DNA of 64,000 nt from Candidatus Staskawiczbacteria bacterium (GTDB lineage Bacteria > Patescibacteriota > Minisyncoccia > Minisyncoccales > Staskawiczbacteraceae): the NCBI GenBank assembly GCA_903928565.1, contig CAIYRH010000010.1, forward strand, positions 41,614 to 105,613, given 5' to 3'. The position numbers and the translations under genes are program-made. Of this stretch, positions 13,871 to 44,262 are shown one piece after another. Under the pieces are notes generated by a model. That model saw nothing but the letters and a program-made list of their open reading frames with translations, did no database searches and was not told the origin of the DNA. Numbering within the stretch: position 1 is the stretch's first letter; each line of letters opens with the position of its first letter.

Positions 13871-14326
13871 ATGAAGAAGGAAATTCCACCCTGGGTAGAC
13901 GAAGAAAAACACCTGACTCGGCCGTTGAGTAACGGCAAAAAACCCCCGGGGTCGAGGATCTACTGCGTTCGTTCCGGTAAGCCGCTGAAAGACGTGGCGC
14001 ATGGGTCCGATCGCTGTCACAAACGGTACGAGATCCACACCATTCTCAGGAACATCGATGAGTTCCGCGAAGGTGATGGAGTATATTCTGTGACGTTCAG
14101 CAGCCAACCCTCTCCGCCGACGGAGGAGGAACTGCGTCATCAACGCCGGCAGTCGCCGCTGTATAAGTGCATCGAAGGTAAGAAATGCAACGTCACCGTG
14201 ACGTCTAATGGCGTTTCTCTCTGGGGCGGGAAGCAACAGAAGGCCCGCCGGCGCCACGGTAGCAAGCGCTGCCGCAAAAACAGCGTTCGCGAACAAGTGT
14301 TCGCGCTCCAACCCCAACCCTGCTAA
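13871..14326 (+). CDS. hypothetical protein encoded in G+C-rich island 1
   Basis: 151-aa ORF. About two thirds of its codons end in G/C (counted by hand: 101 of 151), versus A/T-ending codons in neighbouring genes. No family recognised. It ends ...LQPQPC, inside the CCAACCCCAACCC motif. Confidence 0.5.
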   Translation: MKKEIPPWVDEEKHLTRPLSNGKKPPGSRIYCVRSGKPLKDVAHGSDRCHKRYEIHTILRNIDEFREGDGVYSVTFSSQPSPPTEEELRHQRRQSPLYKCIEGKKCNVTVTSNGVSLWGGKQQKARRRHGSKRCRKNSVREQVFALQPQPC

Positions 14327-14441
14327 CCCTCGCCCCCCAGCACCCACACCCCAGCAAAAAACTTTCCCCGAACAGCCACCCCCTATGGCGGGTATCACTA
14401 AGCAAGCGAAAGCGAGCAAACGTGGTACCCGTCCTATTTTT

Positions 14442-15848
14442 TTATACTTCAAAAGATTGCCCCATTGTTGGAATTTCAACAGGCAATAATGGATAAGATT
14501 TTTCCATTAATTCTTTAAAAACAGTAGCTTGAGGAAGCTCTGTGTGAACTAAAAATAATCTTTGTAAATTTTTAACATGCGCAATGTAAGAAGACAAATC
14601 GTTTTGGTCTGCGTGAGCTGAAAATTCGTGAAGAGTTTTTACTTGTGCCCTAATTTTATATTCTTTTCCATAAATTTTAACTGGACTAATTCCATCCTGA
14701 ATTTTTCTGCCCAAAGTGTCTTCCGCTTGATAACCTGTAATTAAAATTATATTTTGTGGGTTTTCTATATTGTTTTTTAAATGGTGTAAAACCCTGCCAC
14801 CTTCGCACATTCCCGAGGCGCAAATTATCATCATGGGGCCTGGTTTATTGTTTAAAGATTTTGACTCTTCAATTGTGCGCACGTAAGTTAAATTATTTAT
14901 TGAAAATGCCGATTGCCCGCGCGAGCCAAAATCCCTCTGAAAGTTTCCGTTAAAATCTTTTATATATTTTGGAAAAATTTCTGTAATGTTTTTTGCCAAC
15001 GGGCTGTCTATGTAAATTGGAATTGCAGGAATTAATTTTTGGTCTAAAAGTTTGTGTAAAATGTAAATAATGTCTTGTGTTCGGCCCAATGAAAAAGCGG
15101 GCACAATTATTTTACCTTTATTTTTTATTACAGTTGCAATTGCCCCTTTAAAACTTCCGGTGGCGTCGGTAATGGGGCTGTGGTTTTTGTCGCCATAGGT
15201 GCATTCTGTAATAAGCGTTTGCACATCTTCTTGAATGTATTCTGGACGGGGTAAAATAGGGGAATACTCTCTGCCTAAGTCGCCGGTGAAGGCAAGGGTT
15301 TTAACTGTCTCGCCCTCTTTTATTTCCAAGAAAATTATGGCCGAACCCAAAATATGGCCGGCATCGTAAAACTTAAACCGAATGTTTTCATTTAAAGCTG
15401 TCCATTGCCCAGTGTGCTTAAAATAATCTATTGTTTCAAAATGTTCAACAACTTTTAAAACGTCTTGCTCGGTGTAAATGGGAGAAATTTGGTCTGCGGG
15501 ATTTTCTGTGTGCTTGTTAAAATACAGGGCGTCTTGCTTTTGAATTTCGGCGGCATCTAGCATAATATATTTTGCAATTTCGGCGGTGGCTGGTGTGCAG
15601 TAAATTTTCCCCTCAAAGCCGTCTTTAACTAAAATAGGCAGAGTGCCACAGTGGTCTAGGTGAGCATGAGAAAGTATAACAGCATTAATTTCTTTTGGCT
15701 CAAAGGGTAGAGTGCGGTTTAGCCGGTTAGACTCGTCTCTTCTGCCTTGGTAAAACCCGCAATCTAAAAGCAAGTTGTAGCCGTTTGTTTGAATTAAGTG
15801 TTTTGAGCCGGTAACATTTTGGTCGGCTCCTAAAAAGTTTATTTTCAT
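14442..15848 (-). CDS. MBL-fold beta-CASP RNA-metabolising hydrolase (RNase J/CPSF-like)
   Basis: HAHLDHCG metallo-beta-lactamase motif and a beta-CASP layout (FSAHADQNDL near the C-terminus). 468 aa. Confidence 0.85.
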   Translation of the reverse strand: MKINFLGADQNVTGSKHLIQTNGYNLLLDCGFYQGRRDESNRLNRTLPFEPKEINAVILSHAHLDHCGTLPILVKDGFEGKIYCTPATAEIAKYIMLDAAEIQKQDALYFNKHTENPADQISPIYTEQDVLKVVEHFETIDYFKHTGQWTALNENIRFKFYDAGHILGSAIIFLEIKEGETVKTLAFTGDLGREYSPILPRPEYIQEDVQTLITECTYGDKNHSPITDATGSFKGAIATVIKNKGKIIVPAFSLGRTQDIIYILHKLLDQKLIPAIPIYIDSPLAKNITEIFPKYIKDFNGNFQRDFGSRGQSAFSINNLTYVRTIEESKSLNNKPGPMMIICASGMCEGGRVLHHLKNNIENPQNIILITGYQAEDTLGRKIQDGISPVKIYGKEYKIRAQVKTLHEFSAHADQNDLSSYIAHVKNLQRLFLVHTELPQATVFKELMEKSYPLLPVEIPTMGQSFEV

Positions 15849-15956
15849 ATTATGTCATTTTATCATAGTAGCCAAAATATTAGAAACCAAATGCAACTTG
15901 ATTGGATTAGATTTTTGTGTTAAAGTAACACTATTACAAAATTATTTTGTAATTCG

Positions 15957-16027
15957 TGGGCCGTGGAGGAGTAGTACCTCGGCAGTCTCATAAGCTGCAG
16001 GCCCCCGTGCAATTCGGGGCGGCCCAA
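15957..16027 (+). tRNA. tRNA-like gene, anticodon CAU, with non-canonical D and T loops
   Basis: A 71-nt cloverleaf can be drawn: acceptor TGGGCCG/CGGCCCA, D arm GAGG-AGTAGTA-CCTC, anticodon arm GCAGT-CTCATAA-GCTGC, T arm CCCCG-TGCAATT-CGGGG. It lacks the D-loop GG and the T-loop TTC. Confidence 0.45.
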
Positions 16028-16049
16028 CAAAATTAGATATTGAATTGAC

Positions 16050-16304
16050 ATGTGGTTTGTTTATATAATCAAATGTGTTGATGGTTCTTTATACACCGGT
16101 TTTACCAATAACTTGGAAAAAAGGTTTGAAAAACATAAAAGTGGTACGGCTAGTAAATATACAAGATCGCATAAACCGGAAAAAATTGTATTTTTTAAAA
16201 AATTCACCAGTAAAATTGCGGCTCTTAAAAAAGAAAGAGAAATTAAAAAATTGACGAGAAAAGAAAAATTAAGCTTTTTGCAAAGTCATAAAATGCCGGG
16301 GTAG
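16050..16304 (+). CDS. GIY-YIG nuclease-family protein (UPF0213-like)
   Basis: FVYIIKCVDGSLYTGFTNNLEKRFEKHKSG is a GIY-YIG core. The last 10 nt, including the stop codon, lie inside the next tRNA gene. Confidence 0.85.
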   Translation: MWFVYIIKCVDGSLYTGFTNNLEKRFEKHKSGTASKYTRSHKPEKIVFFKKFTSKIAALKKEREIKKLTRKEKLSFLQSHKMPG

Positions 16305-16368
16305 CTCAGTTGGTAAGAGCGCAACACTCATAACGTTGAGGTCGTGGGTTCGACTCCCACCCTCGGCA
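16295..16368 (+). tRNA. tRNA with CAU anticodon (elongator Met or Ile2; not initiator-like)
   Basis: Canonical cloverleaf: acceptor GCCGGGG/CCTCGGC, D loop AGTTGGTAA, anticodon loop CTCATAA, T arm GTGGG-TTCGACT-CCCAC. The 1-72 position is paired, and the anticodon stem has no GGG/CCC. Confidence 0.9.
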
Positions 16369-16375
16369 CAAACAT

Positions 16376-16451
16376 GCGGGCATAGTCCAGCCTGGTTTAA
16401 GACGCCTCCCTGTCACGGAGGAGATCGGGGGTTCAAATCCCCCTGCCCGCG
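16376..16451 (+). tRNA. tRNA-Asp (GUC)
   Basis: Acceptor GCGGGCA/TGCCCGC, anticodon arm CCTCC-CTGTCAC-GGAGG, T arm GGGGG-TTCAAAT-CCCCC. Confidence 0.92.
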
Positions 16452-16460
16452 CTTTTTTAA

Positions 16461-16488
16461 AGCCACCTTTCAATTGAGGTGGCTTTTG
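16461..16488 (+). terminator. terminator after the tRNA pair
   Basis: 8-bp stem AGCCACCT/AGGTGGCT followed by TTTTGG. Confidence 0.7.
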
Positions 16489-16526
16489 GTATATAATAAG
16501 TTTAATTAAATTTACATTATATAACT

Positions 16527-17432
16527 ATGCCAGTTAACGTGCCCGATAAATTACCAGCAATAGAAACTCTTAAAAAAGAGGATATTTTTGTCATGAAAAG
16601 GACAGACGCTCTTCATCAGGATATTCATCCGCAAAAGATAATTCTGTTAAATATAATGCCGACTAAAATAGCAACTGAAACACAAATTTTACGTTTATTG
16701 TCTAATTCTCCTTTGCAAATTGAATTATATCTTCTTCATCCTAAAAGTCACAAGCCAAAAAATACTTCTATAAAACACATGAAGATGTTTTATAAGACTT
16801 TTGACGAATTGAAAAAAAATAAATACGATGGTTTAATAATCACGGGAGCCCCAGTTGAAAGTATTCCTTTTGAAGAAGTTGATTATTGGGAAGAGTTAAA
16901 AGAAATTATGGATTGGAGTAAAAAAAATGTGACTTCCACTTTTTTTATTTGCTGGGCGGCTCAAGCTGGACTTTACCATTTTTACGGCATAGAAAAGCAT
17001 AAATTGCCAAAAAAAATGTTTGGCGTTTTTCCTCACAAAGTCCTTAATAAAAATGTACCATTGGTGAGAGGGTTTGACGACATTTTTTTTGCGCCACACT
17101 CACATTACACGGAAGTTAGAACAAAAGATATTAAAAAAATAAAAAAACTATCACTTATATCTGAATCTGACGAGGCTGGAGTTTATATTGTAGCCTCAAA
17201 AGATAAAAAGCAGATATTTGTGATGGGGCATTCGGAATATGACCCGCTGACTTTAAAAGAAGAATTAGACAGAGATTTAGAAAAAGGTTTGAATACAAGC
17301 GTGCCTAAAAATTATTTTGTGAAGGACAATCCAAAAAATAAACCTGTTGTAAATTGGAGAAGTCACTCAAGTTTATTGTTTATTAATTGGTTAAATTATT
17401 ATGTTTACCAAAAAAACGGGAACGATATTTAA
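16527..17432 (+). CDS. metA: homoserine O-acyltransferase MetA
   Basis: [15 protein letters not shown] start, [20 protein letters not shown] and [10 protein letters not shown] are typical of MetA (HTS/HTA). Confidence 0.9.
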
Positions 17433-17455
17433 TTAATTATTTATTTCAACTACTA

Positions 17456-17506
17456 GCCACCTTTCTTGTCCTGAGCATAGGCGAAGGATAATTAGGGTGG
17501 TTTTTT
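17456..17506 (+). terminator. metA terminator of the GCCACC...GGTGG type, carrying a 25-nt G+C-rich insert in its loop
   Basis: Outer stem CCACC(T)/(G)GGTGG followed by T6. Compared with the uninterrupted copy at 17788-17816, the loop contains an extra CTTGTCCTGAGCATAGGCGAAGGAT. Confidence 0.6.
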
Positions 17507-17547
17507 GGTTGTAAGGAAATGCCTGGCCTGCAGTCATATATGTATAG

Positions 17548-17614
17548 CCCTTAAATTACGAAATGATTTTGAGCCAATTAATTTAAATCAAAAATTTCAT
17601 TTCGTAATTTAGGG
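17548..17614. repeat. 18/19-bp inverted repeat with a 30-nt spacer
   Basis: The arms CCCTTAAATTACGAAATGA (17548-17566) and TCATTTCGTAATTTAGGG (17597-17614) are complementary except for one extra T. Confidence 0.8.
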
Positions 17615-17636
17615 ATAAAAATTAAAGAATAAATAT

Positions 17637-17780
17637 ATGTTTTTAGAAATTGGAATTGTTTTACTAATATTATGGATGCTGGGTTTTGCCTTTTATCCTC
17701 TTGGCGGGCTTATACATATTTTGCTAGTTGTGGCCCTTATTGCCATTGTTTGGCATTTTGTAACAGGAAAGCAGATATAG
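17637..17780 (+). CDS. lmo0937-family small membrane protein (47 aa)
   Basis: MFLEIGIVLLILWMLGFAFYPLGGLIHILLVVALIAIVWHFVTGKQI matches the lmo0937-type two-helix mini-protein pattern. It falls below the ORF-track length cutoff. Confidence 0.65.
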   Translation: MFLEIGIVLLILWMLGFAFYPLGGLIHILLVVALIAIVWHFVTGKQI

Positions 17781-17787
17781 TAACACC

Positions 17788-17816
17788 GGCCACCTTTTAA
17801 TTAGGGTGGCTTTTTG
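17788..17816 (+). terminator. terminator (GCCACC-loop-GGTGGC-T5)
   Basis: 6-bp stem GCCACC/GGTGGC, loop TTTTAATTAG, then TTTTT. Confidence 0.7.
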
Positions 17817-17853
17817 GTAAGGTAAGGTAAAGTAAATTAATTATTCAAATTTT

Positions 17854-18264
17854 ATGGATTATTTAAAACATAAAACTTCGCGATATTGGCTTCACATATT
17901 TTCAATGCCTTTTATTTGGTTGCCTTTGCCATTTCTAATGGCGTGCGACTTAGTTTGTGCATTTTATCAACTGATTTGCTTTCCTATTTATAGAATAAAA
18001 TGGGTAAAAAGATCGGAATATATTTTAATTTTTGACCGCAATAAATTGCCTTATTTAGACGGAATGCAAAAACTTGGTTGCATGTATTGCGGATATGCAA
18101 ACGGAATTTTGCGATATATGAAAGAAGTTGCTGGCAGAACTGAAAAATATTGGTGTGGAATTATGCACGAAGGTAAAACAGGGTTTAAAACTCAAGAAGA
18201 CCAAGTAAGCCAAAATTTTGCACACTTTGAAGATGAAAAAGATTTTAAAAATAAATACAAATAA
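17854..18264 (+). CDS. hypothetical membrane protein with a CxxC pair
   Basis: 136-aa ORF with an N-terminal hydrophobic hairpin and CMYCGYANG. No family recognised. Confidence 0.55.
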   Translation: MDYLKHKTSRYWLHIFSMPFIWLPLPFLMACDLVCAFYQLICFPIYRIKWVKRSEYILIFDRNKLPYLDGMQKLGCMYCGYANGILRYMKEVAGRTEKYWCGIMHEGKTGFKTQEDQVSQNFAHFEDEKDFKNKYK

Positions 18265-18267
18265 ATT

Positions 18268-18480
18268 ATGAAATTATGGAATTGGTTTCTATATATAACT
18301 AATAATGAAGAAACTTCCAGACACGAGCAACAATTTGACGTTGCATTCTTTATTATTAATTCAGTGGCGTTAGTTGTTGGCATTTATATGTTTATTGCAT
18401 ATAACGCGCCAGAGTGGATTCCGGTTTTGATTATTGAATATACCTGGGCGTTTGATAATCTTCGTAACAACAGGAATTGA
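18268..18480 (+). CDS. small membrane protein, paralog 1 (MKLWNW family)
   Basis: 70 aa. Very similar along its whole length to the ORF at 20389-20604. Confidence 0.65.
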   Translation: MKLWNWFLYITNNEETSRHEQQFDVAFFIINSVALVVGIYMFIAYNAPEWIPVLIIEYTWAFDNLRNNRN

Positions 18481-18499
18481 ACATGTTTAACGTGGTAAG

Positions 18500-18525
18500 A
18501 ACCATCTTGCTAAGGTGGTTTTTTA
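18500..18525 (+). terminator. terminator
   Basis: 8-bp stem ACCATCTT/AAGGTGGT (one G-U pair), 3-nt loop, T-run. Confidence 0.65.
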
Positions 18526-18579
18526 TTTAACGCAAATTTAATAACATAATATTAAAATGGAAACTAGAAATATGGGGTA

Positions 18580-18608
18580 TTGACGATTTAACATGGCGGG
18601 AGTATTAT
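18580..18608 (+). promoter_or_regulatory. sigma70-type promoter of the MATE gene
   Basis: TTGACG (18580-18585), 17 nt spacer, TATTAT (18603-18608). Confidence 0.65.
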
Positions 18609-18616
18609 TTAAATAG

Positions 18617-18631
18617 TAATGATTATCATTA
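18617..18631. promoter_or_regulatory. Fur-family-box-like 7-1-7 palindrome
   Basis: TAATGAT-T-ATCATTA is a perfect palindrome. The surrounding 19-mer matches GATAATGATAATCATTATC at 15 of 19 positions. It lies between the -10 element and the MATE start codon. Confidence 0.45.
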
Positions 18632-18644
18632 ACTTTGTATAAAT

Positions 18645-19985
18645 ATGGATTCTGGAAATTTAAAGTTAACTTCTGCCCCAATAAAAGAACTTATTCAAAC
18701 CATGGCGGTGCCCGCCATTATTGGTTTCTTTTTTAATACGCTATTTAATGTAGTTGATACAATTTATTCAGGGTTAATTTCAACACAGGCCATAGCAGCC
18801 CTGTCTTTGTCTTTTCCTATCTTTTTCATTTTAATTTCCATTGGCACGGGCTTGTCGACGGGAGCCACTGCAATAATTTCTAATCATTTAGGCAGAGAAG
18901 ACCACACAGAGGGCAAAATTTATGCTTTGCAAACCATATCATTTGGAATTTTAATTTCTATTCCGCTCACAATTATTGGTTTGGCAGTTTCGCCATATTT
19001 GTTTACGTTGCTGGGGGCAACTGGCGAATATTTGGCTTTATCTTTGGCATTTATGAATATGATTTTTTACGGAACCGTATTTTTTATTATGGTTTACGTT
19101 TTTAATGCCATATTAAACGCCATTGGCGACACTAAAACATTCAGAAATTTTTTAGTTTCTGGTTTGTTTGTTAATATTATCTTAGACCCCTTGTTTATGT
19201 TTGGTTGGCTAGGGTTGCCCAAAATGGGAGTTGCGGGAGTTGCTTTAGCAACCGTTCTGGTGCAGGCAGGAGGAACTGTTTATATGGGGTGGAAGGCGTC
19301 TAAGACATTTTTATTTGAACAGCCCACTTTTAAAAAATTGGTTCCACAGAAAGGGCCATTTTGGGGAATAATAAAACAAGGACTTCCTTCGGCGTTAAAC
19401 ACTGCCAGCGTTGGCGTTGGAATATTTGTAATAACTTATTTTATATCCATTTTTGGTAAAGAATCTGTTGCAGCTTATGGCATAGCAACTCGAGTTGAGC
19501 AGTTGTTTCTTTTGCCCTTGGTTGGGTTAAGTGTTGCCACCTTAACTTTGGTGGGACAGAACAACGGAGCAAGAAAGTTTGACAGGGTAAGAGAAACTCT
19601 CAAAATAACAACAAAGTATGGCGTATACCTCATGACATTTGGGGCTTTATGTATATTTTGCTTTTCGTCATATTTTATGAGAATTTTTACTGCCGATGCA
19701 AGCGTTATAAGCATTGGCTCGCATTACTTAAAATATGCCGCATTTTTAACGTGGGCTTATTTGTTTATATTTTTAAATATTTCAGCTTTACAGGGATTAA
19801 AAAAACCAATGTATGCTTTATATATTGGTTTAGCAAGACAAATAATTTTTCCGCTAGTTATGTTTGTATGGCTGTCTTCCTATTTTGGAATAGATGGAAT
19901 TTGGATTTCAGTTTTTTTTATAAATTGGACGGCTGCAATTATAACAGTATTTTATGTAAAAAAACAAATTGCCAAACTAACTTAA
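18645..19985 (+). CDS. MATE-family efflux transporter
   Basis: 446-aa, 12-TM-like protein with N-terminus PAIIGFFFNTLFNVVDTIYSG, typical of MATE/NorM. Confidence 0.88.
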   Translation: MDSGNLKLTSAPIKELIQTMAVPAIIGFFFNTLFNVVDTIYSGLISTQAIAALSLSFPIFFILISIGTGLSTGATAIISNHLGREDHTEGKIYALQTISFGILISIPLTIIGLAVSPYLFTLLGATGEYLALSLAFMNMIFYGTVFFIMVYVFNAILNAIGDTKTFRNFLVSGLFVNIILDPLFMFGWLGLPKMGVAGVALATVLVQAGGTVYMGWKASKTFLFEQPTFKKLVPQKGPFWGIIKQGLPSALNTASVGVGIFVITYFISIFGKESVAAYGIATRVEQLFLLPLVGLSVATLTLVGQNNGARKFDRVRETLKITTKYGVYLMTFGALCIFCFSSYFMRIFTADASVISIGSHYLKYAAFLTWAYLFIFLNISALQGLKKPMYALYIGLARQIIFPLVMFVWLSSYFGIDGIWISVFFINWTAAIITVFYVKKQIAKLT

Positions 19986-19989
19986 ACAC

Positions 19990-20307
19990 ATGATTAAAAA
20001 AAGTTTAGTTAAAAAATTTAAATATAATAATGGCAAATATGTAGGAAGCTCAGTAGACGCACTATATGGTAATGTTAAGGTTCAAATAATTATAAAGCAA
20101 GGGAAATTAAAAGAAATAGAAGTTATAGATTATCCCAAGGAAGATTTTTATTCTGAGGAAGTGAATGGCAGGGCACTTCCTGTCTTAAAAAAAGAAGCAA
20201 TATTAAAACAAACCAGCAATATTGATACGGTTTCAGGAGCTACAGAAACAAGTGAGGGTTTTATTAAGTCTTTAAAGTCTGCGCTTTTTAAGGCAAGCAA
20301 AATATAA
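19990..20307 (+). CDS. FMN-binding domain protein
   Basis: C-terminal IDTVSGATETSEGFIKSLKSAL (the flavinylation-type S/T-G-A-T motif). Paralogous to 35761-36225. Confidence 0.7.
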   Translation: MIKKSLVKKFKYNNGKYVGSSVDALYGNVKVQIIIKQGKLKEIEVIDYPKEDFYSEEVNGRALPVLKKEAILKQTSNIDTVSGATETSEGFIKSLKSALFKASKI

Positions 20308-20388
20308 TAAATGTCTATTTGTAATTTACCTTTTAATTAAGGTGTTTTTTTGGTAAAGTAAAATAATTATTAATTAAACTTAAAAATT

Positions 20389-20604
20389 ATGAAATTATGG
20401 AATTGGCTTATATACATAACTAATAATGAAGAAAATTCTAGGCATGAGCAACAATTTGATGTGGCGTTTTTTATTATTAACACGGTTGCGCTAGCTGTAG
20501 GTGTTTATATGTTTATTAAATATGGTGCGCCAGAATGGATTCCAGTGCTTATTATTGAATACACTTGGGCGCTTGATAATTTGCGTAATAATAGAAACTA
20601 TTAA
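20389..20604 (+). CDS. small membrane protein, paralog 2 (MKLWNW family)
   Basis: 71 aa, collinear with 18268-18480. The upstream terminator/spacer module is duplicated as well. Confidence 0.65.
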   Translation: MKLWNWLIYITNNEENSRHEQQFDVAFFIINTVALAVGVYMFIKYGAPEWIPVLIIEYTWALDNLRNNRNY

Positions 20605-20793
20605 AATAAAAAAACTGCCTATTAAAGCAGAAAGGGTGGGTGGTGGCTCAGTCACACATAGCAACTGAGCCACCCTGATTATCTTCGACCCGAGGGGGCC
20701 GAGATCGTGTGCTCCGAAGGCGGAGCAGATTTGGCCTTATGGCCGATTGTGGCGCTTCGCAAAGCGCGTATTCGGCCGGATTCGTTCTTGGCT

Positions 20794-20988
20794 CTACGCG
20801 TTGTCGAGGGGCGCCAAGCCGGCGTGAATGCCGTTCTTAGCAGCGTGGATGTTGATGCCGGCCATGCGGATGGTGGTCGTCGCGTTATTGATTGCGACGG
20901 GGGATTGGTTGGCGATTGCCAGTAGCTGTCGGCCTTCTTGACGTTGAGCATTGGCGATCACGACGTTGTTTTGGCATTTTCGGGCCAT
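20794..20988 (-). CDS. hypothetical 64-aa protein in G+C-rich island 2 (the start could instead be at 21075, giving 93 aa)
   Basis: MARKCQNNVVIANAQRQEGRQLLAIANQSPVAINNATTTIRMAGINIHAAKNGIHAGLAPLDNA. 46 of 64 codons end in G/C, with a strong C bias and an RNY-like pattern. The overlapping ORFs in other frames look like shadows. Confidence 0.5.
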   Translation of the reverse strand: MARKCQNNVVIANAQRQEGRQLLAIANQSPVAINNATTTIRMAGINIHAAKNGIHAGLAPLDNA

Positions 20989-20995
20989 AACGGTA

Positions 20996-21017
20996 TTGGG
21001 GTTGGGGTTGGGGTTGG
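20996..21017. repeat. (TTGGGG)3TTGG tandem repeat, which reads (CCCCAA)n on the coding minus strand
   Basis: Read directly: TTGGGGTTGGGGTTGGGGTTGG. It ends 8 nt upstream of the minus-strand ATG at 20988. Confidence 0.95.
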
Positions 21018-21152
21018 ATTGAATCCAGAATCTCCTTTTGGGAGAATTGCGGCCTACATCCGTAGCCACAACCATAAAGCTCCATTTAGAACCTTGTGGC
21101 TGTGGCTACAATAGAGATTGTTGTTAATGAACTATTGGAAAACATTATATTA

Positions 21153-21181
21153 AGTCTATAAAAAAGCAAATATTGTGTCAA
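21153..21181 (-). promoter_or_regulatory. candidate minus-strand promoter for the island-2 transcript
   Basis: On the minus strand: TTGACA (21181-21176), 17 nt spacer, TAGACT (21158-21153). Confidence 0.5.
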
Positions 21182-21221
21182 GGGGGTTGATGCATAAAAT
21201 ATTTTTTGGTAAAATAAAAAC

Positions 21222-21827: not shown

Positions 21828-21853
21828 AATTCGCTCGGCAATCAAATTTTAAG

Positions 21854-21876
21854 GCCGCCCTTTGGGGCGGTTTTTG
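21854..21876 (+). terminator. terminator after the PPIase gene
   Basis: Stem CCGCCC/GGGCGG followed by T5. It is preceded by the same ATTCGCTCGGC box found after pgk. Confidence 0.7.
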
Positions 21877-21969
21877 GATTGACAAGAAGTCGGTTTAGAT
21901 GTATTTTAGATATAATTGCAATAAGGGGTTGCAAGAGCAGACGGTTCTTTGAAAACGAGGGACTAACAA

Positions 21970-22110: not shown

Positions 22111-22132
22111 GAACCATAGAAAAAAACAAAAA

Positions 22133-22624: not shown

Positions 22625-22695
22625 GCCATACCCCGCGGTTAATACTAAGGGGATTTTTTTTGCTACTTAAGGGAAAAAATGATATAGTAACTGAT

Positions 22696-35745: not shown

Positions 35746-35760
35746 ATAATAATTACAACT

Positions 35761-36225: not shown

Positions 36226-36226
36226 T

Positions 36227-36973
36227 ATGAAAGAAACCAGATTTTTAATGGGCATGCCGGTTGTAGTAGAAATTGTTGACGCAAATGCTACACAAGAATC
36301 CATAAATAAAATTTTTGATTATTTCAAATATGTTGATGAAAAATTTAGCCCCTTTAAAGAAACCAGTGAAGTTTCAAAAATAAATAACGGTTTAATAAAA
36401 GAAAAAGATTATAGCCAAGATATGCAAGAAATACTAAAACTTGCAAAGCAGACAAAAGAAGAAGCCGGTGGATATTTTGACATTACTGATAATAACGGGA
36501 AAATTAATCCTTCGGGAATAGTAAAGGGGTGGGCTATATTTAATGCATCAAAATTGGTGCAAGAAATAGGTTTTAAAAATTATTATGTTGAGGCCGGAGG
36601 TGATATACAAGTTAGCGGAAAAAATTCAAATGGAGAGCCTTGGAAAATTGGTATAAAAAACCCATTTAATAATAGCGAGATTGTAAAAATTGTTTTACTT
36701 GATAAAAATCAGGGCATTGCTACTTCGGGTACATACGTAAGGGGGCAACATATATATAACCCAAAAAATAGAACTGAAGAAATGACCCAAATTGTGAGCA
36801 TTTCAGTTATTGGCCCAAATGTTTATGAAGCCGACAGGTTTGCAACTGCAGCCTTTGCAATGCAAAAAGAGGGGATTAATTTTATTGAAAAATTGAGTGG
36901 CTTTGAAGGTTACATGATAAATAAAAATGGAATGGCAACCATGACAAGTAATTTTGAAGCTTACACAAAATAG
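36227..36973 (+). CDS. apbE: FAD:protein FMN transferase (ApbE family)
   Basis: MKETRFLMGMPVVVEIVD..., FSPFKETSEVSKIN, GIVKGWA, GIATSGTY. The start is taken at the ATG just after the upstream stop codon. Confidence 0.85.
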   Translation: MKETRFLMGMPVVVEIVDANATQESINKIFDYFKYVDEKFSPFKETSEVSKINNGLIKEKDYSQDMQEILKLAKQTKEEAGGYFDITDNNGKINPSGIVKGWAIFNASKLVQEIGFKNYYVEAGGDIQVSGKNSNGEPWKIGIKNPFNNSEIVKIVLLDKNQGIATSGTYVRGQHIYNPKNRTEEMTQIVSISVIGPNVYEADRFATAAFAMQKEGINFIEKLSGFEGYMINKNGMATMTSNFEAYTK

Positions 36974-36975
36974 AA

Positions 36976-38496
36976 ATGCTTAAACTTATTGACGACTTCT
37001 TAAATAAGACCACAATGTATAGGCTGCTAATTTATTGCCTGTCGTTTTTGGTTTTGACGGCATTAATTTTCAGTGCTTTGGGAGTAATGTCTTTTAAGCC
37101 GGCGAACTTCATTTTTTCAACAATTTTTTTGATTTTCTTCTGCCTTTTTACAAACTGGGTTTTTGCCAAAGTTTTTGAAGCGCCTTCAAACATTGAATCT
37201 GTTTACATAACCGCCCTTATTTTAACTCTTATAATAGACCCAATTCAGTCGTTAAACCAAGTTTTGTTTTTGTTTTTTGTGAGCGGTTTGGCAATGGCTT
37301 CAAAATATATTTTGGCCATAATTAAAAAGCATATTTTTAATCCAGTGGCAGTGGCGGTTGTTATTACTGCTTTAGCTATGGGGCAATCAGCAAGTTGGTG
37401 GGTGGGGAATTTGTATATGGCGCCGTTTGTTATAATTGCCGGAATATTAATTACCAGAAAAATTAGAAGGGCAGACATGGTCGTCACTTTTTTTGTAGTG
37501 GCGTCTGCAGTTACCATAATTAATAGTATTTTAACTGGAACCGATGTAATTAAAGCTATAGAGTTTATACTGGTTTACTCTTTTTTGCCTTTCCTGGGTT
37601 TTGTAATGTTAACAGAACCCATGACAACTCCGCCCTCTAAAAAATTGCGAATAGTTTATGGGGCATTTGTTGGATTCTTATGCGTGCCTTCGGTGCATTT
37701 TGGGAGCACATATTTTACGCCCGAAATAGCCCTTTTAATTGGAAACGTATTTTCATATTTTGCCAGTCCAAAACTAAAATTAATTTTAACCTTAAAAGAA
37801 AAAACAAAAATTGCTAACAACACTTTCGACTTTGTTTTTAAGCCCAACAGAAGGTTAAAATTTAAACCTGGTCAATATTTAGAATGGACCTTGGGGCATG
37901 AAAGAATGGATAACAGGGGAATGAGAAGATATTTCACAATTGCATCTTCGCCAACTGAAGACAAATTAACAATGGGCGTGAAATTTTATGATAAGCCCAG
38001 TTCGTATAAGCAGGCGCTAGTTGCTTTAAATTTAGAAGATACGCTTGTAGCTTCTCAATTGGCGGGGGAGTTTGTATTGCCAAAAGATAAAAACAAAAAG
38101 CTGGTTTTTATTGCGGGTGGAATTGGAGTTACGCCCTTTAGAAGTATGATAAAATATTTGATAGATAAAAATGAAAAAAGAGATATTATTATTTTCTATT
38201 CCAACAACACAGTAAATGAAATAGCTTACAAAGACATTTTTGACCAAGCTTATGAAAAACTGGGCATTAGAACTATTTATTGCCTAAGTGATTCAAATTC
38301 CATGTCTACTGGGTGGGAAGGTGAGTGTGGATTTGTTAACAACGAAATGATTACAAAATATGCTCCAGATTTTAAAAACAGAATGTTTTACATTTCTGGT
38401 CCACGGTCAATGATACTTTCTTTTCAAGAAACTTTAAAAAACGCAGGAGTGCCTAAAAACCATATAAAGACAGATTTCTTTCCAGGTTTTGCATAA
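36976..38496 (+). CDS. polytopic membrane protein fused to a ferredoxin-NADP-reductase-type FAD/NAD-binding module
   Basis: About 250 aa of TM helices, then FKPGQYLEW, RRYFTIASSP and FIAGGIGVTPFRSM (FNR-family motifs). Confidence 0.75.
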   Translation: MLKLIDDFLNKTTMYRLLIYCLSFLVLTALIFSALGVMSFKPANFIFSTIFLIFFCLFTNWVFAKVFEAPSNIESVYITALILTLIIDPIQSLNQVLFLFFVSGLAMASKYILAIIKKHIFNPVAVAVVITALAMGQSASWWVGNLYMAPFVIIAGILITRKIRRADMVVTFFVVASAVTIINSILTGTDVIKAIEFILVYSFLPFLGFVMLTEPMTTPPSKKLRIVYGAFVGFLCVPSVHFGSTYFTPEIALLIGNVFSYFASPKLKLILTLKEKTKIANNTFDFVFKPNRRLKFKPGQYLEWTLGHERMDNRGMRRYFTIASSPTEDKLTMGVKFYDKPSSYKQALVALNLEDTLVASQLAGEFVLPKDKNKKLVFIAGGIGVTPFRSMIKYLIDKNEKRDIIIFYSNNTVNEIAYKDIFDQAYEKLGIRTIYCLSDSNSMSTGWEGECGFVNNEMITKYAPDFKNRMFYISGPRSMILSFQETLKNAGVPKNHIKTDFFPGFA

Positions 38497-38560
38497 TATT
38501 GTATTGACATGTTAAATGTGCTATTATTAATTATTAGTAATAATTATTGATAAGAAAATA

Positions 38561-39106
38561 ATGTTTGAAGACGAAGAATTAATAAAACAATACTTAAAGG
38601 GCAATAATCTTGCTTTGGAAGCCCTTATTGGTAAATATTTAAAACCAATATACAATTTTTCCTTTAAAAATGTGGGCAACGAAGCAAATGCTGAAGACAT
38701 AACTCAAGAAGTTTTTATTAAGGTTTGGAAAAATATTAAAAAATTTGACCAAACTAAAAAGTTTAAACCATGGATTTTCCAAATAGCCAAAAATACTTCA
38801 ATTGATTTCTTAAGAAAGAAAAAAACCATTCCATTCTCAAGATTTGAAAATGAAAAAGGGCAAAATGTATTAACGGAAAACATGGCGGCAAAACCCCTTA
38901 ACTTATTAGAACAATTAAGCGACAAAAAAACAGTTTTAGTTGCTATGGGAAATTTGTCGTATAAAGAGCAAAAACTCATTACTCTTAGGCACACTGACGG
39001 GCTGAGTTTTAGGGAAATTGCCGAAGCCTTTCAGGAGTCTGTTAACACAATAAAAAGCAGATATCGCAGAAGTTTGGTGAATTTGAAGAAGAATATACGC
39101 ACCTAA
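38561..39106 (+). CDS. ECF-type sigma-70 family RNA polymerase sigma factor
   Basis: Region 2 (EDITQEVFIKVWKNIKKFD, FKPWIFQIAKNTSIDFLRKKK) and a region 4 HTH (LSFREIAEAFQESVNTIKSRYRRSL). Confidence 0.88.
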   Translation: MFEDEELIKQYLKGNNLALEALIGKYLKPIYNFSFKNVGNEANAEDITQEVFIKVWKNIKKFDQTKKFKPWIFQIAKNTSIDFLRKKKTIPFSRFENEKGQNVLTENMAAKPLNLLEQLSDKKTVLVAMGNLSYKEQKLITLRHTDGLSFREIAEAFQESVNTIKSRYRRSLVNLKKNIRT

Positions 39107-39132
39107 CTCTCTCTGGGTTCCGTATAATTTAT

Positions 39133-39519
39133 ATGGAAACTAGATTTAGCATAAATCCACCTCAGGGATTATTAGAAAAAATAATCAAACGCATCCGCAG
39201 AAAGGAGCGTGTTTTGGTTTTAAGAAAAACCGTTATTTTTTCAGCTACTTTAGTTTTGTCGGTGGTTTGTTTTGTGCCGGCTTTCAAAATACTATTGTCT
39301 AATGCTAGTCAGTCGGGGTTTATTAATTTTTTCTCTTTAATATTCTCTGATTTCTCTTCGGTGGCAACTTATTGGAAAAGTTTTGCAATGACTCTTTTGG
39401 AAACATTACCGGCGGTTAGCTTGGCATTTTTTATGGCGGTTTTACTTACGTTTTTGCAATCAATTAAATCTCTCACAAAAAATATAAAATTAATATATGG
39501 ACACAGACAAACTATTTGA
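39133..39519 (+). CDS. membrane protein, possible anti-sigma factor
   Basis: 128 aa and TM-containing, located directly after the ECF sigma gene. The function is inferred from position only. Confidence 0.45.
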   Translation: METRFSINPPQGLLEKIIKRIRRKERVLVLRKTVIFSATLVLSVVCFVPAFKILLSNASQSGFINFFSLIFSDFSSVATYWKSFAMTLLETLPAVSLAFFMAVLLTFLQSIKSLTKNIKLIYGHRQTI

Positions 39520-39961
39520 ATCAAAATTATTTAAAATAATTGTCTTTAGCATTGCGGGACTAATTGTTTTAGTTTTTGTTTTTGGAATGGGGGTTTATGT
39601 GGGCGCCAAAAAGGCCGAATTTTCCTTTAAATGGGCAAACGAATACCACCGTAATTTTGGTGGCCCTCAAGGCGGTTTTCTAGGTGGCATGATGAGCCAA
39701 GAATTTACCGAAGCCAATGGCGTTTTTGGGCAAATAATAAAAATAGATAATCAATCTGTCACTATAAAGGGCAGGGACAATGTTGAAAAAGTTGTTTTGA
39801 TAAACAGCAAAACGTCTATTGTTTACCAGAGAAAAAACGTAGATTTATCTGGACTTAAAATTGGAGATAGTGCAGTTGTAATTGGAGAACCAAATAATTC
39901 CGGGCAAATAGATGCGGAATTAATTAGGGTTATTCCAGCTCCACCGGTGCTACCTCAATAA
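39497..39961 (+). CDS. membrane-anchored beta-rich protein (similar in pattern to 43658-44089)
   Basis: TM anchor, then G.I..I...S.T.......K.......L..G..V.V.G..N..G...A..I.V.P, a pattern shared with the ORF after the ABC permease. Confidence 0.55.
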   Translation: MDTDKLFESKLFKIIVFSIAGLIVLVFVFGMGVYVGAKKAEFSFKWANEYHRNFGGPQGGFLGGMMSQEFTEANGVFGQIIKIDNQSVTIKGRDNVEKVVLINSKTSIVYQRKNVDLSGLKIGDSAVVIGEPNNSGQIDAELIRVIPAPPVLPQ

Positions 39962-39977
39962 AATTAATTTTTTTAAC

Positions 39978-41690
39978 ATGAATTTTTTTACAAAAATAAA
40001 GGAAATCATTTTCAAATATAAAAAAACAAGCATAGTTGTAATTTTAGTTTTATTAGGCGTGGGGTATTTTTGGTATCAGTCGTCAACCAGCGCAAAAGGG
40101 GTAAGCAAATATGTTTTGGCAGAAGTTGTTAAGGGAACTGTTATTTCTTCTGTTTCTGGTACTGGGCAAGTTTCGGCATTAAATCAAATAGATATTAAAC
40201 CGGAAACTTCTGGGCAACTTGTTTACTTAAACATTTCAAAAAATACACAGGTTAAAGCAGGAACCTTGTTGGCACAAATTCAGTCTAGGGATGCTCAAAA
40301 AGCTGTTCAAAGTGCTAAAAATGATTTGGCAACTGCTGAATTATCTTCTCAAGATATTGGAGGGCCAGCGGGTGACGCTTTAAAAACTTCTTATAGTAAT
40401 GCCTTAGATGCCTTAACCACCACTTTTAATGATTTGGTGGCAATGAAAGCAAATTTAGATGCGATGTTTTTGGAAAGCAGTTACCACGGTAGCGACAGCG
40501 ATATAAATTATTACATTGGTTTTGTGCGATATTACGATACAAATACTACAAATGAATTAAGCTATTGGAATACTGACGCTAAGAAAAAATATACAGACAT
40601 GCAAACCAAATTAGACGCACTTGAAGCAGGAGCTTGGAAATTAAACACTGCTTCGGTACCAGCTCAAATTGAAAGCGCAGTAAACGACAGTTATTCTGCC
40701 ACAAATGATTTTACAGATTTAATTCGTCAAGTATCAAATTTAATTCAAAGATATCAAAAAATTTCTAGCGCAGAAAGCTTAACAACTCCAATATCTTCAA
40801 CAACAACTACCAACCAAACAACTCAACTAAGCGGTGCGCTTTCAACATTAACAAAAGATTCAACAGCGCTTTATACGGCAAAAACCGATATTACTACAAG
40901 AAAACAAGCTTTTGCAAAAGTTGGAGTTGACACTCAAGCTCAAAATTTAAATATTTTGCAATATCAAAATGCTTTAGCAGATGCACAAAATACTTTAGCA
41001 AAATATTTTGTATATGCACCCATAGATGGAATTATTTCTGCTTATGATACTACTGTTAAAGTGGGCGACAATGTTTCAGCAGGTGTAGTTTTGGGTTCGA
41101 TTATAAGCAAACAAGATGTTGTTGAGATTTCTTTAAGTGAAGTTGATGCAGTGAAAGTTAAGAAAGGTCAAAAGACAACAATTACGTTTGATGCTTTGCC
41201 AGATTTAACTGCAACCGGTTCTGTGGAAGACATTGATTCTGTGGGAACAACCACTCAGGGCGTTGTTAGTTATGGTGTAAAAATTGCGTTAGACGTAAAC
41301 GACGCTCAAATAAAACCTGGCATGAGTGCCAGCGTGAATGTTATTACAAACACCAGGCAAAATGTTTTAACTGTTCCAAACAGCGCTGTAAAATCAAAAA
41401 ATGGAGTTGATTATGTTTTAGTTTTAAATCAAAAACAAGATTTAACCAGCGCAACTGCCAGCCAGGGATTTGTTTCAACCGTAGCACCAACTCAAAAAAC
41501 AGTTGAAATAGGTTTAGCCGACGACACAAATACAGAAATAACCAGCGGGTTAGTCGAGGGCGACCAAGTTGTTTCTAGAACAATTACTGCCACAAAAACC
41601 ACGGCAACTGCTACGTCGACTACTACAAGTCGAACAACTAGACAAGCAACCCAAAGTTTGACTGGTGGTGCTCCTCCTGGTGGATTTTAA
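39978..41690 (+). CDS. efflux periplasmic adaptor (HlyD/MacA-like) with a long Thr-rich tail
   Basis: TM anchor, biotinyl-lipoyl-like hairpin (GQVSALNQIDIKPETSGQLVYL...VKAGTLLAQI), coiled coil and beta-barrel regions. Confidence 0.82.
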   Translation: MNFFTKIKEIIFKYKKTSIVVILVLLGVGYFWYQSSTSAKGVSKYVLAEVVKGTVISSVSGTGQVSALNQIDIKPETSGQLVYLNISKNTQVKAGTLLAQIQSRDAQKAVQSAKNDLATAELSSQDIGGPAGDALKTSYSNALDALTTTFNDLVAMKANLDAMFLESSYHGSDSDINYYIGFVRYYDTNTTNELSYWNTDAKKKYTDMQTKLDALEAGAWKLNTASVPAQIESAVNDSYSATNDFTDLIRQVSNLIQRYQKISSAESLTTPISSTTTTNQTTQLSGALSTLTKDSTALYTAKTDITTRKQAFAKVGVDTQAQNLNILQYQNALADAQNTLAKYFVYAPIDGIISAYDTTVKVGDNVSAGVVLGSIISKQDVVEISLSEVDAVKVKKGQKTTITFDALPDLTATGSVEDIDSVGTTTQGVVSYGVKIALDVNDAQIKPGMSASVNVITNTRQNVLTVPNSAVKSKNGVDYVLVLNQKQDLTSATASQGFVSTVAPTQKTVEIGLADDTNTEITSGLVEGDQVVSRTITATKTTATATSTTTSRTTRQATQSLTGGAPPGGF

Positions 41691-41701
41691 TTAAAATTTA
41701 G

Positions 41702-42394
41702 ATGATAGAAATAAAAGATTTAATAAAAATTTATAATTCGGGAAGTGTGGGGTTTCAGGCTCTCTCGGGAGTAAATTTTTCAATTAAAGACGGAGAATTT
41801 GTGGCAATTATGGGGCCTTCTGGGTCGGGCAAATCAACCTTAATGCATATTTTAGGATGCCTAGACACGCCAACTAGCGGTACATATTTTTTAGATGGCA
41901 AAGATGTTTCAACTTTAAATGAAGACGAGTTGGCGGAAATAAGAAAAAATAAAATTGGATTTGTTTTTCAGGCATTCAACCTTTTGCCAAGAACTACTGC
42001 CTTAAGAAATGTTTCGTTGCCTTTAGTTTATGCTGAAGTTGACCCAATTGAGCGCGAGAAAAAAGCAAAAGAGTCATTAAAATCGGCCGGTTTAGATGAA
42101 GAATTTTTTGATCATTTGTCTAACCAATTATCGGGCGGACAAATTCAAAGAGTTGCCATTGCCAGAGCGTTGGTTAACAACCCTAAATTAATTTTAGCCG
42201 ACGAACCAACCGGAAACCTAGATTCTAAAACCGGAGAAATTGTTTTGGAGACTTTTAGAAAATTAAATAAAGAACACGGAAGAACAATTATTTTAATAAC
42301 TCACGAGCACGAAGTTGCCGAACACGCAGACAGAATTATTTCACTAAAAGACGGGCTAATTATTAGCGATTCTGGCGCACATAAAAAAAAGTAA
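41702..42394 (+). CDS. ABC transporter ATP-binding protein (MacB/LolD type)
   Basis: GPSGSGKST, LSGGQIQRVAIARAL and ILADEPTGNLD motifs. Confidence 0.93.
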   Translation: MIEIKDLIKIYNSGSVGFQALSGVNFSIKDGEFVAIMGPSGSGKSTLMHILGCLDTPTSGTYFLDGKDVSTLNEDELAEIRKNKIGFVFQAFNLLPRTTALRNVSLPLVYAEVDPIEREKKAKESLKSAGLDEEFFDHLSNQLSGGQIQRVAIARALVNNPKLILADEPTGNLDSKTGEIVLETFRKLNKEHGRTIILITHEHEVAEHADRIISLKDGLIISDSGAHKKK

Positions 42395-42398
42395 AGTT

Positions 42399-43631
42399 AT
42401 GAAATTAAAAGATACTCTAGAAGAAACATTTTTAGCACTTTTGGCAAACAAAGCCCGCACAGCTTTAACTATTTTGGGTATTGTTATTGGAATAAGTTCG
42501 GTAATTGTTATGGTGTCTGTGGGGCAGGGGGCAACTGGGTCAATCCAGGCCAGCATTGAATCAACCGGCTCTAACCTTTTAATGATAACTCCAGGTGCTG
42601 CAAGAACTTTTGGGGCTGGAGTGCGGTCGGCGGGAGGGACAGCGCAATCACTTACAGTTGACGACGCCAACGCCATTGCCAGCCAAGTTGCTTCTGTGCA
42701 ATACATGACACCGGAAGTTTCGGGAAGATACCAAGTTGTATATAAAGGAAACAATACAAATACTTCAATAATGGGAACCAGCGATAGTTACACGCAAGTT
42801 AGAAATTTAAGCATAGACCAAGGGGTTTTTATTACCACCCAAGATGTTGAAAGCGCGTCAAAGGTTGCTGTTGTTGGGCCAACAGTTGTTACAGATTTGT
42901 TTGGCACAGATGCTGTGGCTTCAGATGCAATTGGCCAAACAATAAAAATAAATAAAATACAGTTTCAAATTGTGGGCGTAACAGTTGCAAAAGGTGGTAG
43001 CGGTTTCCAAAACCAAGACGACAGAATTTATATTCCATACACTGTTTCGCAAAGATATTTTACAGGGAACAAATATTTGTCAGAAATTGATTTACAAATT
43101 GCTAGCCCAGACCAAATGACCACAGCTCAAAATGATGTTACAAGTTTGTTGCTAACGCGTCACAACATTGCAGACCCAACTTCCGCAGATTTTACCGTTC
43201 AAAACCAAGCCGACATTTTGTCTTCTATTTCTAGCGTAAGCCAAACCTTAACAATTTTATTGGGTGCAATTGCCGGAATTTCTTTATTAGTTGGTGGAAT
43301 TGGAATTATGAATATGATGCTAACAACTGTTACCGAAAGAACAAAAGAAATTGGTTTGCGCAAAGCCATTGGAGCAAAAGCCAAAGATATTACTTTTCAA
43401 TTTTTAACAGAAGCAGTTGTGTTAACTTTTTCGGGTGGAGTAATTGGAGTTTTTTTGGGGTGGGTAATTTCGTGGGGTGTTAAATATTTTAATTTGTACC
43501 AAACAAAAGTTTCGTTGTTGTCCATTGTTTTGGCAGTTGTGGTTTCGGGCGCAATTGGAATTGTTTTTGGGTATTATCCGGCCAAGCGTGCAGCAAAATT
43601 AAATCCAATAGAAGCATTAAGATATGAGTAA
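42399..43631 (+). CDS. ABC transporter permease (MacB/FtsX type)
   Basis: MacB_PCD-like periplasmic domain between TM1 and TM2. C-terminal FtsX helices and the tail [19 protein letters not shown]. Confidence 0.9.
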
Positions 43632-43657
43632 AAATTAATATTAAAAAAATAAAAAAT

Positions 43658-44089
43658 ATGAAAAAAAATATTTTGATCGTGAGTATTATTATTTTAATTG
43701 TAGCCGGTGGGGCATTTTATGGTGGAATGCTTTATGGCAAAAGCCAGAATGCGCGCCCAAATTTTGGCAATGGAACTTTCCAAACCAGAATTAATAGGGC
43801 CGGAGCCAATGGGGGTTTTATTTCTGGCACAATACTTTCTAAAGACGCCAGTAGCATTACAGTGCAACTTCAAAATGGAAGCGGTTCAAAAATAATATTT
43901 TATTCAGACACAACATCTGTTGGAAAAATGACTGAAGGTACAGCAAATGATTTGGCGGTTGGAACTTCGGTGAGCGTTATGGGCACAACTAATTCCGATG
44001 GAAGCGTAACTGCTCAAAGTATTCAAATTCGGCCAGCTGGGCAAGGAAAGCCAATGAGCCCATCTTCGGTTGATACAGCTGTTCAATAA
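43658..44089 (+). CDS. membrane-anchored beta-rich protein
   Basis: 143-aa ORF with a TM anchor. Same pattern as 39497-39961. Confidence 0.55.
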
Positions 44090-44102
44090 ATCGTTTTTAA
44101 AA

Positions 44103-44131
44103 GCCCGTGGCTAATTGCCGTGGGTTTTTTC
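44103..44131 (+). terminator. terminator closing the ABC operon
   Basis: 8-bp stem CCCGTGGC/GCCGTGGG (two G-U pairs) followed by T6. Confidence 0.65.
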
Positions 44132-44160
44132 TTGCAATTTTTTTCACTTTGATTTAATCT
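44132..44160 (+). promoter_or_regulatory. candidate promoter of the PurH-like cassette
   Basis: TTGCAA (44132-44137), 17 nt spacer, TAATCT (44155-44160). Confidence 0.5.
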
Positions 44161-44262
44161 AAAAATGATCAACGCGAGGCAGTTCTCGCGCTGACGCATC
44201 TTGATAATCAAGTTCTTTTTTACCAACCCCAACCAAACCAACCCCAATAGGAGGAACACGCC

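Follow-up and report, generated by a model that had tools for sequence, protein, structure and literature searches.

C/A-rich sequences upstream of ribosome-binding sites (RBS) have been shown to enhance translation in enterobacteria, where the enhancer needs no fixed distance from the start codon (PMC3879156). CA-rich sequences can also act as ribosome standby sites in these organisms, and where an RBS is sequestered, (CA)8 tails cause a strong increase in initiation (PMC5934652). The present analysis concerns a 64-kb stretch of DNA from a Candidatus Staskawiczbacteria contig (CAIYRH010000010.1; termed the window), in which CCAACC-type repeats stand immediately before certain start codons. 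With a rough probability of 0.45, the repeat is read as a C/A-rich leader, specific to the lineage, that enhances translation initiation or serves as a ribosome standby site. The tracts resemble the enterobacterial enhancers (the ACA motifs of gltI, dppA and yifK; GcvB targets) in being short, G-poor and, by prediction in islands 2 and 3, unstructured, and in their location in the 5' untranslated region (UTR), within or just upstream of the RBS. They differ in consisting of tandem CCAACC, CCCCAA or CTACCAA repeats rather than scattered ACA motifs, and in their host, a Shine-Dalgarno (SD)-poor Patescibacterium in which enhancer activity is putative. They are also similar to the ribosome standby sites of MS2 coat and tisB and to synthetic (CA)n 5' tails, in that a tail predicted to be single-stranded lies by a structure-flanked start, although the start regions here, unlike those of standby systems, are not predicted to be strongly sequestered (accessibility 0.54-0.73). 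If the reading is correct, this would be the first concrete translation-initiation cis-element for an uncultured Patescibacterial lineage that largely lacks SD sequences.

All motif counts, G+C-rich (GC-rich) islands and the gene survey refer to the 64-kb window, and cluster counts to both of its strands (128 kb). The sequence CCAACCCCAA has seven exact matches, against 0.25 expected, and none of 100 shuffles attains seven. These matches start at 14308 on the plus strand, at 20996, 21002 and 21008 on the minus strand, at 44223 and 44238 on the plus strand, and at 49282 on the minus strand. A preliminary description of the sequence had reported the first six and had assigned them to three GC-rich islands, and both observations are borne out: the window has 36.8% GC, and its sole long stretches of at least 50% GC are 13849-14484, 20594-21102 and 44339-46028 (islands 1, 2 and 3). 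The same description had seen no copy in the AT-rich bulk. This holds for the 12-mer CCAACCCCAACC, exact copies of which are confined to the three islands in a number that no shuffle gives, but not for the shorter sequence, nor for a related repeat before dnaJ (56234-56263). The lone seventh copy of CCAACCCCAA (49282-49291, minus strand) lies in AT-rich coding DNA, antisense to an MFS-like gene, and is taken as chance. The association of motif and islands is real.

When a CCAAC cluster is defined as at least three CCAAC with neighbours no more than 12 nt apart, exactly three clusters are found on the two strands, and none in 200 shuffles. The last CCAAC of the cluster is separated from an ATG on the same strand by 5 nt at dnaJ, by 12 nt at the open reading frame (ORF) of island 2 and by 20 nt at the PurH-like gene of island 3. 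Only about 1% of strand-positions, by our own estimate, lie this near upstream of a start, and the placement of the clusters is therefore not attributable to chance. Across 1.38 Mb of related loci a single CCAAC cluster occurs, directly before the SD-ATG in the leader of the PurH-like gene of locus L013, and the density of clusters in the window is approximately 30 times that in these loci.

These figures bear directly on the simpler possibility that the tract has no specific function, the repeats being independent low-complexity or slippage products and the shared 10-13-mer a coincidence. Several observations are in keeping with it: the copy in island 1 is ordinary coding DNA whose PQPC end is conserved, the lone 10-mer lies in AT-rich coding DNA, the repeats are unconserved in most orthologues, and two of them (island 2 and dnaJ) are perfect tandem arrays of the kind typical of recent slippage. 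Moreover, a (C4A2)n 16-mer is frequent in viral contigs, where most matches encode TPTP, NPNP or QPQP linkers (Thr/Pro/Asn/Gln). Other matches, in about 10 of the 120 viral contigs that were sampled (L131, L183 and L211 among them), stand directly before an SD-ATG and fit the leader reading. Nevertheless, absence of function is considered doubtful, as it accounts neither for a count that no shuffle attains nor for the position of all three clusters and the L013 cluster immediately 5' of starts, at a density so far above that of the related loci.

The most complete leader is that of island 3. It belongs to a divergent PurH-like gene (44263-45966, plus strand; 51% GC, with a G+C content at third codon positions (GC3) of 0.54) that encodes MGS and AICARFT_IMPCHas domains, scores under the NCBIfam equivalog cut-offs and is a member of a family widespread in Patescibacteria. 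A promoter-like TTGCAA-17-TAATCT (44132-44160, plus strand, read from sequence) is followed by two small predicted 5'-UTR hairpins (44173-44190, with loop GCAGUU, and 44200-44212) and by a G-free stretch of 37 nt (44213-44249). Within the latter lies the tract ACCAACCCCAACCAAACCAACCCCAA (44222-44247), composed of C and A only and containing three CCAAC, which is predicted to be unpaired. The SD and start occupy 44249-44265, with AGGAGG at 44249-44254, an 8-nt spacer and the ATG at 44263, and the junction reads T-AGGAGG-N8-ATG, which agrees with the preliminary placement of the motif directly before an AGGAGG-N8-ATG. The L013 orthologue, the protein of which is 61% identical, has the same layout, with a promoter TTGCAT-N16-TAATCT, a hairpin with an altered stem and the loop ACAGUU, and the leader CAACCAACCAACACCAACCAACCAAGGAG-N7-ATG; it thus keeps the C/A character and the position of the tract, but not its exact sequence.

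On the minus strand of island 2, a promoter-like TTGACA-17-TAGACT (21153-21181) precedes a strong predicted 5'-UTR hairpin (21062-21109; leader fold z = -4.1) and a perfect (CCCCAA)x3.7 repeat (20996-21017). This repeat is predicted to be unpaired and lies, without an SD, 7 nt before the ATG at 20988, and not 8 nt as had been reported. The ATG opens a putative ORF of 64 amino acids (20797-20988, minus strand; GC3 0.72, C3 0.55) that is not called in public assemblies. The third cluster, a perfect (CTACCAA)x4.3 repeat with four CCAAC (56234-56263, plus strand), ends 4 nt before the ATG of dnaJ at 56268; it was apparent when the 40 nt upstream of every window gene were listed, where the entry for dnaJ reads CTACCAACTACCAACTACCAACTACCAACTGACG-ATG. 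A promoter-like site upstream of the tract and an ATG 4-15 nt downstream of it are common to islands 2 and 3 and dnaJ, an arrangement that island 1 lacks. Since consensus-like promoters stand upstream, the tracts are seen as transcribed leaders; the predicted transcription starts of the islands lie near 13722, 21146 and 44167. The suggestion of a shared translational leader is supported for islands 2 and 3, where the tract is in the 5' UTR, G-free, predicted single-stranded and next to the start, but not for island 1.

The host background gives these leaders their context. The window carries bacterial RNase P RNA (8284), four tRNAs, lepA and dnaK/dnaJ, and its proteins have their best relatives among Patescibacteria that bear the label Candidatus Staskawiczbacteria. 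A full SD, AGGAGG, precedes one of about 57 window genes, namely the PurH-like gene of island 3, and the remainder have A/T-rich leaders. Related loci (L011-L014, L215 and L216) are likewise SD-poor, and at L012 and L013, too, a clear SD is seen only before the PurH-like gene. Rfam and ARAGORN searches of the window returned only the RNase P RNA and the four tRNAs, all outside the islands, with no transfer-messenger RNA or other non-coding RNA within them. In Rfam searches that included permissive scans, the leaders of islands 1, 2 and 3 and of dnaJ scored far below the gathering score, with neither a ZTP riboswitch before the PurH-like gene nor an RNA thermometer. The fourth tRNA (Met, CAT; 15957-16028) is called by ARAGORN and is not among the Rfam matches that reach the gathering score.

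What is shown of the tracts is where they lie, what they are composed of, that they are enriched and predicted to be single-stranded, and that they are absent from island borders; the favoured reading adds to this an effect on translation. The repeat would form part of a transcribed 5' leader in islands 2 and 3 and, as a variant, at dnaJ. Being G-free and built of C and A only, the tract cannot pair with itself, and in front of a start codon or SD it could offer an unstructured landing or standby site, and an initiation enhancer, for the 30S subunit. A dedicated open segment at the start would be useful to the island genes, given their GC-rich coding sequences and the length and structure of their 5' UTRs. 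Nearly all other genes have plain A/T-rich leaders without an SD. The predicted accessibility of the start region in the island genes (0.54-0.73) is equal to that of native genes (median 0.56) despite the GC-rich coding sequence, which is compatible with, although no proof of, a leader that keeps the start open.

Several points weigh against a role in initiation. The PurH-like orthologues of L011, L012 and L014 have no C/A tract in their leaders, and the dnaJ repeat is missing from the 89%-identical dnaJ of L013. In the window, the predicted fold does not leave the dnaJ repeat open but pairs it with a GU-rich (TAGTTTG)x3.4 repeat that lies upstream (56194-56217), and C-rich tracts in general could still pair with G-rich coding sequence. 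The 64-aa ORF of island 2 found no homologue in any search, viral contigs included, and its start is unproven. Finally, the exact recurrence of the 12-mer at three sites points beyond a purely compositional requirement, and in island 1, where the copy is coding, the 12-mer is improbable under a first-order Markov model (2.5e-4 to 2e-3 expected).

The dnaJ copy may work differently from the tracts of islands 2 and 3. The dnaK-dnaJ spacer contains two complementary 7-nt tandem repeats, for which an imperfect hairpin, containing mismatches and G-U pairs, is predicted just before the dnaJ start. In no other gene are the first 60 nt of the coding sequence as structured as in dnaJ (-16.3 kcal/mol). 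On this predicted fold, the spacer hairpin could be a thermometer-like or processing element.

The sharing of exact sequence raises the alternative that the tract is a specific binding site, for a G/U-rich sRNA of the GcvB type or for a C-rich-RNA-binding protein, through which the genes are co-regulated post-transcriptionally; this could coexist with an enhancer. The identical 12-mer in three units, the sequence CCAACCCCAATA common to the island 2 and island 3 leaders, and the sequence CCCCAATA, which in three of its six occurrences precedes an ATG, that of lepA among them, by 13-21 nt (start to start), would all be expected of such a site, and the enterobacterial CA-rich enhancers are themselves GcvB targets (PMC3879156). 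A specific site nevertheless seems unlikely. No complementary element of the UUGGGGUUGG type is present in the 64-kb window save on the strands opposite the tracts and in one MFS coding match, the L013 orthologue retains composition and not sequence, and no candidate binding factor was identified. The copy upstream of lepA is unconserved in relatives, being kept neither in L216 nor in L091. This copy, ACCCCAATAG at 11015-11024, is the same as the end of the island 3 leader; it begins 14 nt (start to start) before the start of lepA and falls within the end of the preceding gene.

A further alternative places the function at the level of DNA, either as a template-strand G-quadruplex (G4), (TTGGGG)n or GGTTGG-N3-GGTTGG, that modulates transcription, or as a slippage-prone contingency repeat. 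Every cluster gives at least four GG runs on the template strand, with TTGGGGTTGGTTTGGTTGGGGTTGG and (TTGGGG)4 as candidate G4 sequences, and the strands opposite both PurH leaders have the form GGTTGG-N3/4-GGTTGG (GGTTGG-TTT-GGTTGG at 44229-44243 in the window and GGTTGG-TGTT-GGTTGG at 9947-9962 in L013). This layout resembles that of the two-tetrad thrombin-binding aptamer, GGTTGGTGTGGTTGG. The perfection of the island 2 and dnaJ repeats, and the fact that three assemblies stop 16 nt from the former, might be expected of an unstable repeat. Against both forms of the idea, most cases permit only two-tetrad G4, the arrays have few units (4.3 at most), and contigs L001 and L002 are identical across island 3, with no length polymorphism there; nor did any contig with another copy number come to light. 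Moreover, what stays constant is how far the tract lies from the start codon, an indication of a role as RNA, and a function as DNA appears quite improbable. The assemblies concerned are three independent metagenome assemblies (the L218 and L219 entries), all of which stop at 21033; the common break hints at heterogeneity or at a branch in the assembly graph. Look-ups by exact protein returned neither another allele of island 2 nor an extension of the contig past the window.

The island 2 repeat unit is also identical to the telomere unit of Tetrahymena, (C4A2)n/(T2G4)n. Unlike ciliate telomeres, the tract is internal, has 3.7 units and belongs to a bacterial 5' UTR, with a sigma-70-type promoter on one side and a start codon on the other. 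Nothing points to a relation with telomeres, bacterial genes adjoining the tracts, and derivation from ciliate telomeres or other eukaryotic DNA was rejected on account of the bacterial genes, the sigma-70-type promoters, the SD in island 3 and the internal position of the tracts.

Island 1 departs from this pattern. Its motif copy, a 13-mer at 14308-14320 (plus strand), had been placed 5' of a start codon as in the other two islands, but it is coding sequence and lies 3' of the gene body: it supplies the codons Q-P-Q-P in the C-terminus of a basic protein of 151 amino acids (13871-14326, plus strand), the frame reading CTC CAA CCC CAA CCC TGC TAA, i.e. LQPQPC-stop. The gene has a GC3 of 0.66 and a coding-like pattern of GC1, GC2 and GC3, and belongs to a small, fast-evolving family. 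An exhaustive HMMER search returned two homologues, P0122 (46% identity, E = 4e-15) and P0124 (34%). The C-terminus of P0122 (...EQVFSFLPQPC, compared with ...EQVFALQPQPC in the window) is conserved, from which it follows that the island 1 motif is coding sequence. Improbable as the 12-mer is in island 1, most of it is already accounted for by the conserved P-Q-P codons, and the copy is rated a probable, though not certain, coincidence at the C-rich end of a gene. A structure model of the 151-aa protein was unusable (predicted local distance difference test score, pLDDT, 45.7).

The ATG at 14385, to which the island 1 motif had been related, is very unlikely to be a true start, as it sits at the 5' edge of an intrinsic terminator (14387-14444, plus strand), in the 5' arm of a long hairpin (14387-14433) that is followed by a U run. 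Between the stop codon and this terminator lies a C-rich, G-poor 3' UTR of 60 nt (14327-14386, plus strand; 55% C, 8% G), and the orthologues also carry a G-poor spacer before their terminators. This region is similar to rut sites in its length (approximately 60-110 nt), in its excess of C over G, in its predicted lack of structure and in its position directly after the stop, but it differs from them in that an intrinsic terminator follows. The 5' tracts of islands 2 and 3, at 22-37 nt, are short for Rho loading, which needs at least some 60-80 nt.

The conservation of the island 1 and island 3 loci decides against another proposal of the preliminary description, that the motif marks a cassette junction, a recombination site or a common foreign origin of the islands. 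Its occurrence in all three GC-rich islands, the foreign-looking codon usage of the island genes, the SD of island 3 and the structural variation nearby (contigs that break at 21033 and a tail of L001 that diverges after 46106) could all be so explained. However, both homologues of the 151-aa gene are located at the same site, convergent with a beta-CASP nuclease gene and, in L216, with lepA upstream too, and they are GC-rich against AT-rich flanks. Neighbours at this site are 75-88% identical and the 151-aa protein 37-42%, so that, judged from these comparisons, the gene is a fast-evolving resident; in L091, different genes occupy the site. In island 3, the gene order of L011 is that of the window (MacB, DUF5666, PurH-like, MarR, RND), the neighbours being 89, 62, 67 and 61% identical and the PurH-like protein 59%. 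In the closest relatives (L011-L014), the PurH-like gene lies 12-17 GC points above its flanks. By synteny and composition it looks like a long-term resident and not a recent insertion.

For islands 1 and 3, therefore, the genes stand at conserved syntenic sites in several related genomes, with neighbours 61-89% identical, with a divergence like or above that of those neighbours and with orthologues that are equally GC-rich and mostly without the motif. The place of the motif is within a transcription unit, where it occupies coding sequence or the stretch from promoter to start; it does not coincide with composition borders. No flanking direct or inverted repeats, such as would constitute the cassette-boundary signatures that had been envisaged, were found, and besides the motif the islands share no stretch longer than 12 nt. 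With the motif inside transcription units, nothing longer shared and two of the islands old residents, the idea of a cassette or common origin fails. We are confident that the motif is not a cassette junction, and the proposal as a whole, which finds no relatives in viral contigs either, is extremely improbable. Synteny and the composition of the orthologues likewise led, as regards islands 1 and 3, to the rejection of a recent transfer of all three islands from one donor, and a phage origin was discarded as the searches found viral relatives of neither the 64-aa nor the 151-aa protein. More generally, caution is warranted in reading motif-sharing GC-rich islands as mobile cassettes, as two of the three considered here are old residents.

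The source of the GC-richness is a separate matter. Native genes, including dnaK and lepA, have a GC3 of 0.24-0.40, against 0.54 in the PurH-like gene, where both G3 and C3 are raised; on these grounds translational selection was rejected as the source of the high GC3. Ancient transfer with slow amelioration and selection on composition are equally compatible with the data, and either may apply. The GC-richness also figures in a last interpretation, in which the islands constitute a distinct expression class in AT-rich, SD-poor Patescibacteria, with the CCAACC repeat as the recognition element of a lineage-specific factor (a protein, an sRNA or a specialised ribosome interaction). Such a class would consist of long-resident, fast-evolving genes at conserved loci, 12-25 points GC-richer than the genome, each with a consensus-like promoter of its own, a leader that is long and structured, and a CCAACC repeat and/or an SD unused elsewhere in the genome. 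This interpretation is held to be distinctly unlikely.

The by-products of the analysis, namely the persistently GC-rich, fast-evolving genes and a conserved, putatively two-state leader without an Rfam match, may matter more than the motif. Two unrelated families (13871-14326 and 44263-45966) lie 12-25 GC points above AT-rich genomes at conserved sites (L011-L014, L215 and L216), and both outpace their neighbours: lepA, the beta-CASP gene, macB and dnaJ are 75-89% identical, the two families only 37-42% and 59-61%. Further GC-rich ORFs with consensus-like promoters are present in relatives (L012, 368-1078; L014, 9567-10352; L091, 6392-7015).

The leader in question is that of the 151-aa gene, which follows a perfect promoter, TTGACA-17-TATAAT (13687-13715, plus strand). 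Its structured 5' UTR (13749-13840, plus strand) is kept in three genomes, with counterparts at 1982-2055 in L215 and at about 5876-5960 in L216, and no Rfam match was found for it. It comprises a long hairpin P1 (13749-13809), in which five pairs are changed on both sides among the three sequences, and a pairing P2 between UCUAUCC (13804-13810) and GGAUAGA (13827-13833), which covaries to UCUAUUC/GAAUAGA in L216; an invariant AUAGAAGUCU follows P2. As P2 overlaps the 3' arm of P1, the two are mutually exclusive, which suggests a two-state RNA, a switch or attenuator, on the strength of the predicted pairings.

In island 2, the region 3' of the ORF (20608-20796, minus strand) is rich in hairpins, with five predicted (z = -5.15). 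They are GC-rich, and one of 14 bp without a U run is followed by a weak terminator (20615-20630, with a U run). This region could be a structured RNA in its own right. Adjoining the island is one copy of a 214-nt direct repeat (18263-18476 and 20384-20597; 82% identity) that encodes paralogous proteins of 70 and 71 amino acids, and the two copies flank a MATE efflux gene and an FMN-binding gene. Near island 3, contig L001 (2251-2389) is identical to the window through the PurH-like gene and diverges after 46106, just before marR, into another small membrane-protein ORF. The population probably includes a variant without the MarR-efflux operon, as in the gene order of L013.

Elsewhere in the window, positions 1-4342 hold three tandem paralogues of a Cys-rich protein of approximately 565-580 amino acids with CxxC at both ends, the first of which is cut by the window edge. 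In addition, a secreted, Cys-rich protein of 778 amino acids (57977-59398) contains about six tandem repeats of 207 bp (69 amino acids) and another repeat of 99 bp.

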